Shown one piece after another: positions 6,742 to 19,365 of a stretch of 20,000 nt of DNA. How positions within the stretch are numbered: the stretch's first letter is position 1; each line of letters begins with the position of its first letter. The stretch is from an uncultured virus (IMG/VR IMGVR_UViG_3300006925_000013). Taxonomy: Duplodnaviria > Heunggongvirae > Uroviricota > Caudoviricetes. Location: positions 51,187 to 71,186 of the IMG/VR virus record IMGVR_UViG_3300006925_000013. One strand, given 5' to 3'. The notes below the pieces were generated by a model. That model worked only from the letters and a program-made list of their open reading frames with translations. It made no database searches and was not told the origin of the DNA. The translations under genes were made by a program, and so were the position numbers.

Positions 6742-7155
6742 ATGGAAGAGTTTTTTCACAAACATATTATTAAATTTACAATTATAGTCACATTACCTTT
6801 ATGGGTAGCATGGGCATTTGCAGATGACAAAGTTATAGGGTATACTGAACACGGTATTCCTGTTACTAAAGATGCTTTAGAAATTAACACATTTAATTAC
6901 ACAAGAGTTAGAGGTTGGGAATGGAATGATGAGGAAAATATACTAACTCTAAGATTTACAAATAAGAAAAAAATAGATGTAGAGTTTTATAATAGATGCT
7001 GGGACATACAGTATGCTTCAGCCTTGCAATTCAACTCATGGGCAGGAACTACTTTTATTGGTAAGGGAGACAACATCACGCCTATAGGTTGGACAAATAA
7101 AGGAAAATATCCTTGTACAATAAAAAGTATGTATTTGGCGGTTGAGGAAGAATAA
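6742..7155 (+). CDS. exported/membrane-anchored hypothetical protein (DUF6491-like)
   Basis: Signal-peptide-like N-terminus ending AWAFA; two Cys (RCWDI, PCTIKSMY) spaced as I recall for DUF6491. Confidence 0.6.
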   Translation: MEEFFHKHIIKFTIIVTLPLWVAWAFADDKVIGYTEHGIPVTKDALEINTFNYTRVRGWEWNDEENILTLRFTNKKKIDVEFYNRCWDIQYASALQFNSWAGTTFIGKGDNITPIGWTNKGKYPCTIKSMYLAVEEE

Positions 7156-11033: not shown

Positions 11034-11050
11034 GTATTTAGGTACTGTAT

Positions 11051-11077
11051 AAAAAAAGGGTCCTAGGACCCTTTTTT
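11051..11077. terminator. bidirectional intrinsic terminator
   Basis: Perfect 26-bp palindrome AAAAAAGGGTCCTAGGACCCTTTTTT (11052-11077) between convergent genes, T-tract on both strands. Confidence 0.9.
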
Positions 11078-11088
11078 AGTGGTTGTGT

Positions 11089-11369: not shown

Positions 11370-11401
11370 AGGTTGACCAGTACCCCAAAATTTAGTATAA
11401 T
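11370..11401 (+). promoter_or_regulatory. early-type sigma70 promoter
   Basis: TTGACC 11373-11378, 17 bp, TATAAT 11396-11401. Confidence 0.85.
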
Positions 11402-11434
11402 ATATGCATAATTTGTAAAAAGGTAGGAGTTTTT

Positions 11435-11905: not shown

Positions 11906-12120
11906 TGGAATACGTCGAATCTTTGGATTATAAAATCCGTTACTTAGATAAATTTAGTGCTAGGGCAGGTAAACATAATTGGATATCTGACCCTAAAACT
12001 TATTCTGATAGTGACGTTTTCCTTAGGTTAGATGAGTTACAAGCATTAGGCTACTTGGTTGAATTAACTTTTAATTTAAAAAATAAGAAAGAAAAGGTTG
12101 ACCTAGGTCAGGTTTTTTAG
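11905..12120 (+). CDS. hypothetical protein
   Basis: TAATG coupling; 71-aa ORF. Confidence 0.65.
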   Translation: MEYVESLDYKIRYLDKFSARAGKHNWISDPKTYSDSDVFLRLDELQALGYLVELTFNLKNKKEKVDLGQVF

Positions 12121-12126
12121 TATAAT
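12095..12126 (+). promoter_or_regulatory. early-type sigma70 promoter
   Basis: TTGACC 12098-12103, 17 bp, TATAAT 12121-12126. Confidence 0.85.
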
Positions 12127-12161
12127 ATATACATATTAAATAATTTCGTAGGAGTAATTAT

Positions 12162-13241
12162 ATGTCAGATAACATTCGAACAGTAAAACTAAGCAGGGCA
12201 AAGAACCACATCAAACGTGCTTTCTCTAAAAAACGTCCTGTATTCATTTGGGGTCCTCCAGGAGTTGGTAAGTCCGACGTACTGGCTCAGATCGCTGAAG
12301 AAGGTAACAACCTTTTAATTGATTTGAGAATGGCTTTGCTAGACCCAACAGATATCAAAGGGTATCCTTACAGAGATGAGGACACTAACAAAATGATGTG
12401 GGCGGCACCTGCCGAACTACCATCAGAAGAACTTGCTAGTCAGTATGAAACTGTCTTCTTGTTCTTAGACGAACTTAACTCTGCACCTCCAAGTGTGCAG
12501 GCAACTGCTTACCAGTTGATCCTTAACCGTAGGGTTGGACAATATGTATTACCAGATAACGTGGTAATTGCGGCGGCTGGTAATAGAGACACTGATAAAG
12601 GTGTTACTTACAGGATGCCAAGTCCTTTAGCAAACAGATTCCTTCACTTAGAAGTTGAAGTTAATCATGACGATTGGCAGTCTTGGGCAGTTGATAATGA
12701 CATCAACCCAGATGTTGTTGGTTACTTGGCTTTTGCTAAACAAGACCTTTTTGACTTTGATCCAAAGAGTTCAAGCAGGAGTTTTGCTACTCCTAGGTCT
12801 TGGGCATTCGTTAGCCAAATGCTAGAAGACAGTGACATGACTCATGAAGAGGAAATGGACATTGTAACTGGTTTGGTTGGTGAAGGTATGGCAATCAAGT
12901 TTATGAACCATAAGAAGAATGCTTCTAAACTTCCTAAGCCATCTGAAATCCTTTCAGGTAAGGTCAAGGAGTTGAAGAAACTTGAGATATCTTCTAAGTA
13001 TGCTCTTACAGTTGGTATGAGTTATGAGTTGAAGAACATTCAAGACAATGGTGAAGAGAAAGAACTCACAGAGGCTTTCAATAACTTCATTAACTTCTTA
13101 ATGGACAACTTCGAACCTGAGATGTGTGTATTAGGCTGTAAAATTGCATTGAGCGAGTATGACATTGATGTTGACTTTGCAGACGTAAAACGTATTGATG
13201 AGTGGGTTGATCGATACGGCAAATACATGAACATCGACTAG
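12162..13241 (+). CDS. MoxR-like AAA+ ATPase
   Basis: Walker A GPPGVGKS, Walker B LFLDE, AAGN sensor, LANRF Arg finger, TPRSW. Confidence 0.9.
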   Translation: MSDNIRTVKLSRAKNHIKRAFSKKRPVFIWGPPGVGKSDVLAQIAEEGNNLLIDLRMALLDPTDIKGYPYRDEDTNKMMWAAPAELPSEELASQYETVFLFLDELNSAPPSVQATAYQLILNRRVGQYVLPDNVVIAAAGNRDTDKGVTYRMPSPLANRFLHLEVEVNHDDWQSWAVDNDINPDVVGYLAFAKQDLFDFDPKSSSRSFATPRSWAFVSQMLEDSDMTHEEEMDIVTGLVGEGMAIKFMNHKKNASKLPKPSEILSGKVKELKKLEISSKYALTVGMSYELKNIQDNGEEKELTEAFNNFINFLMDNFEPEMCVLGCKIALSEYDIDVDFADVKRIDEWVDRYGKYMNID

Positions 13242-13296
13242 TTAGTCTCTGTGTCGCCAGTTACTCCTACAACCTACACTAAGCGGCACAGACTAA
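13242..13296 (+). ncRNA. candidate 3'UTR structured RNA with an anti-RBS loop
   Basis: Arms TTAGTCT(CT)GTGTCGC 13242-13257 and GCGGCACAGACTAA 13283-13296; loop contains TTACTCCTACAACCTAC. Confidence 0.5.
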
Positions 13297-13329
13297 GGGG
13301 GGATCTACAAGGTCCCCCCATCCTTTTTA
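13297..13329 (+). terminator. intrinsic terminator
   Basis: GGGGGGATC-TACAA-GGTCCCCCC stem-loop followed by ATCCTTTTTA. Confidence 0.75.
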
Positions 13330-13339
13330 TCCAAATAAT

Positions 13340-13371
13340 AGGTTGACCTCCCAGGTAATTTTTAGTATAAT
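13340..13371 (+). promoter_or_regulatory. early-type sigma70 promoter
   Basis: TTGACC 13343-13348, 17 bp, TATAAT 13366-13371. Confidence 0.85.
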
Positions 13372-13399
13372 ATAAGTATAGTTTGTAGGAGAACACACA

Positions 13400-14626
13400 A
13401 TGAACAATTTAGCACAAAATACAGATCAAGCAGTAAAGGACAGATTAATTACTGCTAGAGTGCAACTGCTTCTTAAGAATGGTTTCTTTGGTAACTTAGC
13501 AACTAGGTTACAATTACAAGAAGCATCAAGTTGGTGCCCAACTGCCGCAACAGATGGCAGATACTTTTTTTATAATACTGAGTTTATCAATTCGTTAGAT
13601 GATGACGAACTGATCTTTTTGATGGGCCACGAAGTTCTACATAATGTTTATGACCATATGGACAGACGTGGTAACAGAGATCCTCGTCTTTGGAACATAG
13701 CAAATGACTATGTTGTGAATATGGACTTAGTAGAAAACAACATTGGTAAGAGAATTACCAAAGTTAATATTTGTTTTGATTACAAATATCAGAACTGGAT
13801 TTCAGATGAGATCTATGATGACTTGTATGAAAATGCTGAGCATGTTACCCAAGAAACACTTGATATGCATTTGGACTATAGCGAGGAAGATGGCGATGGT
13901 CAAGGTGCACAAGGTAATGTAGATGGTGGTGATAAGCAAGATGGCCCACCAGCATATTCTAAGGAAGAAAGACAGCAGATCAACGACGAAGTTAAAGAAG
14001 CAGTAATGAATGCGGCCAAAGGTGCTGGTAATAAAGATCTTCCTAATGGTGTTAGGAAGATGATTAAAGATCTTACTAACCCTGAGTTAGACTGGAGAGA
14101 GTTACTTGCAACTAATATTCAAAGTGTTGTAAAGAATGATTTTACATTTATGAGACCTGCTAGAAAAGGTATTGCTGAAAGAGTATACTTACCAGGTATG
14201 GACTACGACACAGACTTAGATGTGTTCTGCTTTATTGATAGTTCCGGTTCTATGTCAGATGAAATGCTAAGAGACCTTCTAAGCGAAGTAAAAGGTTGCA
14301 TGGAGCAATACACTAACTTTAAACTTAGACTTTGTTTCTTTGATACATCTACATACACAATTCATGAGTTTGATTCAACTAACGTTGATGACATTTATGA
14401 CATTGAAATTGAAGGCGGTGGTGGTACTGAGTTTGATTGTATGTTTGATCGACTCAAAGAAGAAGACATTGTTCCGCAGAAGTTAATTGTATTCACAGAT
14501 GGTTACCCATGGGGTAGTTGGGGTGATGAAGACTACTGTGATACATTGTTTATTATTCATGGCTCTGGCTACGGTGGTAGAACTCCAGAAGCACCATATG
14601 GCGTATCAGTGAAGTATAAAGCATGA
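13400..14626 (+). CDS. DUF2201-type putative metallopeptidase with C-terminal vWA domain
   Basis: TAATDG, HEVLH (HExxH), WNIANDYVVN, MIDAS DSSGS, GGGGT, FTDG. Confidence 0.88.
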   Translation: MNNLAQNTDQAVKDRLITARVQLLLKNGFFGNLATRLQLQEASSWCPTAATDGRYFFYNTEFINSLDDDELIFLMGHEVLHNVYDHMDRRGNRDPRLWNIANDYVVNMDLVENNIGKRITKVNICFDYKYQNWISDEIYDDLYENAEHVTQETLDMHLDYSEEDGDGQGAQGNVDGGDKQDGPPAYSKEERQQINDEVKEAVMNAAKGAGNKDLPNGVRKMIKDLTNPELDWRELLATNIQSVVKNDFTFMRPARKGIAERVYLPGMDYDTDLDVFCFIDSSGSMSDEMLRDLLSEVKGCMEQYTNFKLRLCFFDTSTYTIHEFDSTNVDDIYDIEIEGGGGTEFDCMFDRLKEEDIVPQKLIVFTDGYPWGSWGDEDYCDTLFIIHGSGYGGRTPEAPYGVSVKYKA

Positions 14627-16050: not shown

Positions 16051-16080
16051 TATAGTATATTAAGTAGTTGAGTAGGAGTT

Positions 16081-19330: not shown

Positions 19331-19365
19331 AGTTGTATAAATTAAAAAGGTAGGAGATTTTAATT

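Follow-up and report, generated by a model that had tools for sequence, protein, structure and literature searches.

What is the role of a hairpin that lies between the stop codon of a phage ATPase gene and the transcription terminator, and whose loop is complementary to ribosome-binding sites (RBSs) of the same genome? We analysed a window of 20,000 nucleotides (nt), bases 51187-71186 of a 71-kb IMG/VR contig (IMGVR_UViG_3300006925_000013) of an uncultivated marine phage. The contig is estimated at 19% of the genome, and thus is a fragment of a jumbo phage. The G+C content of the window is 36%, and the long open reading frames (ORFs) are on the plus strand. The original prediction, made from the window alone, was that the hairpin is an anti-RBS translational switch, acting either by end-to-end pairing within the ATPase mRNA or as a small RNA (sRNA) that silences the early genes. 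We find that the hairpin is best explained, with a probability of roughly 0.62, as a conserved anti-RBS element of the untranslated 3' region (3'UTR) that would act on the ATPase mRNA itself and on the mRNA of the partner gene. The features involved are as follows.

12148..12157, plus strand: RBS of the AAA gene, GTAGGAGTAA, perfectly complementary over 10 nt to loop bases 13261-13270
12162..13241, plus strand: AAA+ ATPase gene, 359 aa (PHROG 1297 "ATPase"; weak match to Pfam AAA_5; MoxR-like according to the annotation of relatives)
13248..13292, plus strand: 3'UTR hairpin predicted by RNAfold, stem 13248-13257 with 13283-13292 plus an inner 3 bp
13260..13277, plus strand: anti-RBS loop core GTTACTCCTACAACCTAC, conserved in relatives and predicted to be unpaired
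13297..13328, plus strand: intrinsic-terminator-like hairpin and U run, predicted by folding, stem of 10 bp with 7 G-C
13376..13394, plus strand: leader and RBS of the DUF2201 gene; 17/19 positions complement loop 13260-13279, with one bulged A
13400..14626, plus strand: gene of a DUF2201_N (putative metallopeptidase) and VWA-like protein, 408 aa (Pfam E = 2.7e-41 and 1.3e-10)

RNAfold of the region 13235-13335 predicts a 10-bp stem, a bulged C at 13258 and three further pairs (13259-13261 with 13278-13280), which leave an open 16-nt loop at 13262-13277 with unpaired probabilities of 0.84-1.0. The bulged stem noted originally is present, its length being 13 bp (10 + 3) and not 14. The energy of the fold, terminator included, is -37.6 kcal/mol (z = -4.86), and none of 200 shuffled sequences folded as well. 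The hairpin starts 7 nt after the AAA stop (ORF end 13241) and ends 4 nt ahead of the expected terminator, a G/C hairpin at 13297-13319 with a U run at 13324-13328; in relatives the stem of this terminator is kept and its loop is variable. The AAA mRNA and any RNA derived from its 3' part would both end at this terminator, and the 3-4-nt spacer ahead of the U run may make termination leaky.

No Rfam family matched the window at the gathering score, and in the region 13150-13450 at E <= 10 there were two chance matches only, both on the terminator. A tRNA-like or intron fragment was rejected, as neither Rfam nor ARAGORN produced a signal at the hairpin site. Also rejected were a minus-strand gene start, the minus-strand GTAGGAG being 30 nt from the nearest ATG, and a DNA-level inverted repeat flanking the gene, which leaves the G-U-only stem changes described below and the placement in a loop unexplained.

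The loop is complementary to the RBSs of both the AAA gene and the DUF2201 gene. It may form a 12-bp duplex of -17.4 kcal/mol with the former and a duplex of -20.6 kcal/mol with the leader of the latter, the second best and the best, respectively, among the 114 ORF starts of the contig. When the plus strand of the whole 71-kb contig was scanned with RNAduplex, the DUF2201 leader again was the best partner of the loop, the next distinct site having -18.6 kcal/mol. An ungapped search of the contig with the 18-nt complement of the loop, allowing at most three mismatches, returned only the loop itself; the real matches are shorter or bulged. All five RBS matches listed in the original prediction are present: 10 nt at 12148-12157, 9 nt at 13383-13391, 8 nt at 11423-11430 and at 16072-16079, and 7 nt at 19350-19356. 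On the plus strand of the window, the GTAGGAG motif common to these sites has five copies, all located behind TTGAC(C/T)-N17-TATAAT and at a distance of 5-9 nt from the start codon that follows; the minus strand has a single copy, namely the hairpin loop. The contig contains 13 forward and three reverse copies, one of the latter within a tRNA-Glu gene. By a hand estimate, CTCCTAC is expected about 0.7 times per strand in 20 kb at this G+C content, and one copy is observed; thus the 7-mer alone is not beyond chance.

We then turned to relatives, all of them uncultivated viral contigs and metagenomes, many marine or otherwise aquatic by record names. The best 80 loci were retained per scan, and the locus counts are lower bounds. 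An ATPase-centred scan produced 153 loci with complete genes, corresponding to 112 distinct combinations of RBS and 3'UTR and to 52 3'UTR clusters. The longest perfect complement between the RBS region of a gene (25 nt) and the 3'UTR (90 nt) served as the measure. Start codons were set by a simple rule, and some DUF2201 starts may be wrong.

The 3'UTR of the AAA gene and its own RBS change together. The RBS GUAGGAGUAA is accompanied by UUACUCCUAC (the window, L175, L271), GGAGUAAC by GUUACUCC, GGAGUAACAUA by UAUGUUACUCC, AGGUAGGU by ACCUACCU, GGUAGGAG by CUCCUACC, GAAAGGAGUA by UACUCCUUUC, and AGGAGUGAUGUA by its 12-nt complement (L291). Lineages without the big-loop hairpin contain CCCAGGAG with CUCCUGGG and CUGAGGAG with CUCCUCAG, the complement lying a few bases past the stop codon. 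Over the 52 clusters, the longest complement averages 6.56 nt within own pairs compared with 5.48 nt in cross pairs, and none of 20000 permutations reached the own value. Complements of at least 8 nt were observed in 16/52 own pairs and in 97/2652 cross pairs (3.7%; 0/20000 permutations). At least 10 nt is reached by only nine of the 2652 cross-lineage pairs, that is, an own match of 10 nt is rare. The duplex energies behave in the same way (-11.2 for own pairs against -9.13 for cross pairs, 0/20000 permutations). These data favour the originally suggested end-to-end autoregulatory pairing of the AAA mRNA, with the DUF2201 leader as a second target in the clade of the window.

Two observations concern the same 3'UTRs and leaders. 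In two groups of loci (L258, L290, L304, L305 and L262, L267, L307) the part of the leader that complements the 3'UTR is its start and not the Shine-Dalgarno (SD) box, the pairs being CUAACUAUA with UAUAGUUAG and UUUCUAACUGU with ACAGUUAGAAA; here the 5'-3' match is kept but shifted along the leader. In L326, L339 and L357 an exact 17-nt complement of the loop of other clades is found in a leader, after a small hairpin and about 45 nt before a 280-aa ORF. This ORF has no PHROG match, and no homolog of it was found in the contig of the window or in five larger records. The site could be a target in trans or a chance match, without a link to AAA-bearing phages; in a database of this size, a few chance matches to a 17-mer are expected.

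The hairpin itself is conserved as a structure. Close relatives, with DUF2201 proteins 82-100% identical to that of the window, comprise 15 IMG/VR and 10 metagenome loci, of which 13 were aligned. Loop positions 13260-13275 are invariant and 13276-13277 nearly so in 13/13 relatives, and hence the core is conserved, whereas variation, including insertions and deletions, is seen in the 3' part of the loop, in the loop of the terminator and in the spacer of the promoter. The only changes in the stem are a U-A/U-G swap (L014 and L015) and a replacement of C-G by U-G (L012). Pairing is kept in all of them by G-U wobble, which fits an RNA of the plus strand and not of the opposite strand. The region 13360-13394, which begins shortly before the -10 element and includes the DUF2201 leader, is also invariant, and the leader itself is the same in 15/15 relatives.

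In relatives with 52-57% DUF2201 identity, the hairpin occurs in the same place with a wholly different stem and a loop of 23-28 nt, which retains GUUACUCC and holds two or three CCUAC-like repeats. In six loci (L181, L183, L187, L202, L204, L206) it follows the AAA stop although a different gene comes next, and therefore it is part of the AAA mRNA. Of the 37 occurrences in IMG/VR of a 17-nt loop motif from these other clades, 34 follow an AAA homolog on the same strand at a distance of less than 120 nt. A pattern of 14 nt from the loop was too short to be selective: only 4/82 of its matches lie after an AAA gene. A stem-anchored scan of IMG/VR was abandoned: it produced mostly chance matches, and among the matches listed 12/120 carried the loop, all from the same locus in close relatives.

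The segment GTTACTCC is invariant in 29/29 hairpins from four stem types. As MAFFT left the unrelated stems out of register, the stems were compared using arms taken from folds and using a covariance-model alignment. The former contains 13 distinct stems with 98.9% canonical pairs, and 0/5000 shuffles of partner arms were as good; this test is partly circular, since the arms were chosen from folds. The latter, which is fitted to its model, contains 16 distinct sequences. All 10/10 pairs change on both sides, 93.4% of the cells pair, and the covariation score is 0.955, compared with 0.264 in shuffles (0/500) and at most 0.25 with slid partners. Covariation of the stem, conservation of the loop and covariation of loop and RBS in many lineages thus support the anti-RBS function suggested originally.

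Several hairpins contain additional structures. In the CUCCC-loop clades (L176, L181, L187, L191, L229, L230, L232, L236), GGGAG(A/G)GG directly follows the AAA stop. It is SD-like, lies inside a small hairpin GCCUAAGGGAGAGGC and is complementary to the loop, and possibly serves as an internal decoy or an alternative partner. In L192, L271, L314, L390 and L396, an extra small stem-loop is nested in the big loop upstream of the unpaired GUUACUCC core.

The proposed mechanism has three components. Firstly, the stem in the 3'UTR of the AAA gene would hold open a pyrimidine-rich loop resembling an anti-SD sequence. Secondly, the loop would pair with the RBS of the same mRNA by 10-12 bp, covering the SD box and most of the spacer, and in the clade of the window also with the first ~17 nt of the DUF2201/VWA mRNA, covering its SD box. 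Finally, the pairing would keep 30S ribosomal subunits off both RBSs and may yield a substrate for RNase III. The output of the ATPase and of the DUF2201/VWA protein would be limited and coupled in this way. The contact could form in cis, as a 5'-3' contact of the kind described for icaR, between molecules (the full mRNA or a processed 3' fragment), or on read-through transcripts. Pairing in vivo, repression and each of these modes are what we infer from the sequences.

One possibility, which we consider rather doubtful, is that the element works as a completion switch. The RBS would be free during transcription, and the loop would close once the 3' end is made, so that each transcript yields a fixed burst of ATPase, irrespective of how long it survives. 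The same loop, in the mRNA or in a released 3' fragment, would titrate the 5' end of the VWA/DUF2201 mRNA and set the ratio of ATPase to adaptor. If true, this would be a conserved "closed loop" of mRNA in a bacterial virus, with 5'/3' covariation over dozens of lineages.

A number of observations weigh against the 3'UTR element as an anti-RBS regulator of the two genes. The contact of the loop with a distant 5' end is a pseudoknot, which is outside the scoring of the folding tools. In the contig the loop ranks only fourth among the partners of the DUF2201 leader, and thus the duplex energy alone is no outlier; the two stand out through adjacency and joint conservation. The AAA RBS is altered (GGAGCAA) in L014, L015, L167 and L171 with the loop unaltered, the match being reduced from 10 to 8 nt. 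Inside the clade of the window the loop and its targets are invariant, and the covariation comes from other clades only. The 52 clusters are not fully independent phylogenetically, and a test of strand asymmetry, plus-strand RNA against the opposite strand, gave an indecisive 12/18.

The element is also far from universal. By the 8-nt criterion it is absent from 36/52 3'UTR clusters, and relatives with 46% DUF2201 identity keep the order of AAA, terminator, promoter and DUF2201 without the first hairpin. Therefore it is dispensable for the gene pair. In a PA5oct-like Pseudomonas phage, the one cultured relative inspected (50.6% AAA identity), there is a plain terminator and no complementarity (-6.0 kcal/mol).

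The relation of the window hairpin to those of other clades is a further weak point. The covariance model R1, seeded from five other-clade sequences, detects 18 hairpins among the related loci and misses that of the window, both at E <= 1 with default filters and at E <= 10 with filters off. The homology rests on position and the shared 8-nt core. Common to all are the location between the AAA stop and the terminator, a loop of at least 16 nt and the core GUUACUCC, and the loops of L188 and L248 are intermediate, having 17 nt and 11 nt in common with neighbouring types. We treat the window hairpin as a divergent subtype, linked by position, architecture, the 8-nt core and the intermediate loops.

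The evidence from RNA libraries consists of assembled contigs of four metatranscriptome runs in which relatives are present, and such contigs do not show transcript ends and levels. One contig spans 12597-13391, and another starts at 13320 beside letters that we take to be adapter-like; DNA carry-over is possible, and nothing follows for transcripts.

It is unlikely that the hairpin and the terminator form a stable 3'UTR-derived RNA of ~90 nt that represses all GTAGGAG early genes in trans and shuts off the early regulon. Such an RNA would be consistent with the match of the loop to all five GTAGGAG RBSs of the window (7-10 nt), with the predicted openness of the loop, and with the existence, in some clades, of two genes with an identical loop-matching leader. 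Indeed, a hairpin followed by a terminator is the usual build of 3'UTR-derived sRNAs. Those of the type of CpxQ, SroC and DapZ share the terminator of the parent gene, are released by RNase E, mostly depend on Hfq, and have unlinked mRNAs as targets. The window element is similar in its location between stop codon and terminator, in the shared terminator of the parent mRNA, in the invariant loop, single-stranded by prediction and comparable to a conserved seed, and in having predicted RBS targets. However, its best targets are the parent mRNA and the neighbour. The two top-ranking targets among the ORF starts of the contig are the DUF2201 and AAA genes; the RBSs of the other three early genes share only the 7-8-nt GTAGGAG(T) core with the loop and have weaker duplexes (-11.8 to -15.9). 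In relatives, the leaders of these three genes vary between the -10 element and the SD box, whereas the loop is fixed.

Genome-wide data also speak against a regulon. Among other SD-bearing starts in the same loci, a complement of at least 8 nt is found in just 11/156, DUF2201 starts counted in, which is near background. In five records of 64-250 kb, the 17-nt loop complement with at most three mismatches matches only RBSs within ~1.2 kb of the loop (six non-self matches; none for the reversed pattern), that is, near-complementary sites are confined to the neighbourhood of the AAA gene. Finally, GTAGGAG and the promoter pattern (TTGAC, 15-19 nt, TA[T/G]AAT) are uncoupled: seven GTAGGAG sites of the contig have no such promoter before them, and seven such promoters have no GTAGGAG. 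The silencing of the whole early regulon, the main reading of the original prediction, is thus not specifically supported.

A different role would be insulation from read-through, which involves the following two sites.

12098..12126, plus strand: promoter-like site of the AAA gene, TTGACC-N17-TATAAT, 11/12 consensus matches, position conserved in relatives
13343..13371, plus strand: promoter-like site of the DUF2201 gene, with the anti-RBS loop on one side and the downstream target of this loop on the other

Promoter activity is predicted for these sites, and transcription would start at ~12133 and at ~13378, respectively. In relatives the hexamers of the second site are invariant and the spacer is variable. 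The loop then would form the 5' arm of a long-range helix, and this helix would mask the RBS of DUF2201 only when transcription from the AAA promoter reads through the terminator; transcripts from the internal promoter at 13343 would lack the 5' arm and be translated. The geometry is suggestive: the promoter-like site lies between the arms 13260-13279 and 13376-13394, the start at ~13378 would fall inside the 3' arm, and the loop ceases to be invariant at the point that corresponds to the predicted start of the leader transcript. Moreover, the minimum-energy fold of 13225-13450 contains the loop/RBS helix (-49.1 kcal/mol), and the spacer before the U run is what a leaky terminator could have.

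Similar arrangements are known in phage T4, where RBS-sequestering helices form in read-through transcripts of e, soc, 49 and I-TevI, and an internal promoter lies within the helix. The window resembles them in the promoter-like site between the anti-RBS arm and the DUF2201 RBS arm and in the predicted masking of the RBS in a read-through fold. However, the T4 helices are local and divide early from late expression, whereas here a terminator stands between the arms, and the two promoters share one consensus, which gives no sign of a temporal switch. An element of the T4 type is expected to travel with the masked downstream gene; in the six loci mentioned above the hairpin is kept with another gene next, and it also occurs where no such promoter follows. 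The RBS of DUF2201 fits the 3'UTR less well than that of the AAA gene: in the permutation test the mean is 5.76 nt for own pairs and 5.34 nt for cross pairs (181/20000 permutations), with at least 8 nt in 7/41 (12/20000), a weaker signal than for the own RBS, and the complementarity is absent in L291, L303, L308, L318, L320 and L283 in spite of a strong own match. We therefore regard read-through insulation as improbable.

An equally poor candidate is a protein-binding or stabilising 3'-end element, recognised by a phage or host RNA-binding protein or forming a barrier to 3' exonucleases, in which the CCUAC/CUCC-rich loop would be retained for this purpose and its fit to RBSs would be a side effect of the richness in pyrimidines. 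The two or three CCUAC-like repeats in loops of other clades would be typical of protein-binding RNAs, the position just ahead of the terminator suits a stability element, and the loop is unchanged even where the AAA RBS changes. This does not explain, however, why the 3'UTR changes together with its own RBS where loops differ, or why L303, L308, L318 and L251 have an unstructured anti-RBS stretch after the stop. An ordinary stabilising hairpin that happens to carry CTCCTAC is very improbable, as the composition-like frequency of this 7-mer and the several equally good duplex partners of the leader elsewhere in the contig are set against the conservation of the element, the covariation of its stem, its association with the AAA gene and the results of the permutations.

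The closest known analogue of an anti-RBS element in the 3'UTR is icaR of Staphylococcus aureus, where pairing of the 3'UTR with the SD box of the same mRNA is reported to block initiation and to feed RNase III (Ruiz de los Mozos et al. 2013, PMC3868564). The icaR motif, UCCCCUG, sits in a 3'UTR termed long there (>100 nt; PMC3868564). In both cases an anti-SD motif of the 3'UTR is complementary to the SD box of the same mRNA; here the complement is 10-12 nt and covaries across lineages. The differences are that the phage motif forms the loop of a covarying hairpin between the stop codon and the terminator, that icaR is bacterial whereas this gene belongs to a phage, and that a second, better predicted target exists on the neighbouring partner gene.

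In Bacillus subtilis, distant anti-SD-like 8-mers are reported to pair with RBSs in vivo and to be depleted from genes (Gill et al. 2025, preprint, PMC12697547). As far as that report goes, such stretches are normally selected against, and therefore a conserved one is likely functional and unlikely neutral. Contacts between mRNA ends are also described for a toxin mRNA of Helicobacter pylori, a fold-back 5'-3' lock (PMC6733600), and for the 5'- and 3'-UTRs of B. subtilis hbs (PMC5737220). The long-range anti-SD and fold-back systems resemble the phage element in that a pyrimidine-rich stretch hundreds of nucleotides away pairs with an RBS, reduces translation and speeds decay. On the other hand, those are engineered substitutions or toxin locks, whereas here a loop element of an ATPase mRNA is naturally conserved. 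Fold-back 5'-3' locks are also formed by type I toxin mRNAs such as hok.

Among phages, the antisense RNAs c4 of P1/P7 and CI of P4 come from the same transcript as their downstream targets; they are repressors of temperate immunity with dedicated processing. The likeness consists in a phage hairpin loop complementary to a site that includes an RBS ~100 nt downstream on the same strand. However, no sequence or structural similarity was found, and there was no match in Rfam.

To our knowledge, very few bacterial 3'UTRs control the RBS of their own mRNA, with icaR as the textbook case, and none of them has broad comparative support. No phage example was found in a limited full-text search of the literature. 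The joint change of 3'UTR and RBS in many lineages of a phage gene family is evidence of the kind that usually establishes RNA-RNA contacts. If confirmed, the hairpin would be a new structured RNA motif absent from Rfam, and a means by which phages dose, through 5'-3' contacts of mRNA, a widespread ATPase/VWA gene pair of jumbo phages whose role is unknown. A further use would be as a small natural building block for adjusting translation from the 3' end, namely a hairpin whose loop can be programmed.

The DUF2201/VWA protein is the usual partner of such ATPases, and the AAA-DUF2201 order is retained in distant relatives. The pair is common in large phages, with 805 records of a phage collection matching the DUF2201 protein and 857 matching the ATPase; a DNA search of the cultured-phage collection returned no match. 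The protein encoded at 13400-14626 is assigned to PHROG 1314, labelled "HNH endonuclease", and many RefSeq phage records bear this name. Pfam finds no HNH domain in it, and the label seems to be a mistaken annotation that has been propagated.

The promoter-like sites of both genes belong to a near-consensus family (A)GGTTGAC(C/T)-N17-TAGTATAAT, found in the window at 11373, 12098, 13343, 16022 and 19302 (and 4285). The leaders behind them are short, often start with (G)TATAG and end with GTAGGAG, which in our reading reaches 2 nt past the standard pairing with the tail of 16S rRNA. In the gap before the 11373 promoter, a symmetric hairpin at 11050-11079, composed of an A-run, a G/C stem and a U-run, resembles a bidirectional terminator; it is a spurious match of the model R1. 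Outside the window, the contig carries tRNA-Glu(TTC) and tRNA-Ala(TGC) genes (contig 145-219 and 1283-1358).

A second anti-RBS/RBS pair was observed at contig positions 6696-6759, where AATTACTCCTAC precedes by 40 nt the RBS GTAGGAGTAATT of a gene whose start is at 6760. The two form a local 12-bp hairpin that buries the SD box (-20.6 kcal/mol, z = -2.9), and the same RBS is the third-best predicted target of the loop at 13260.

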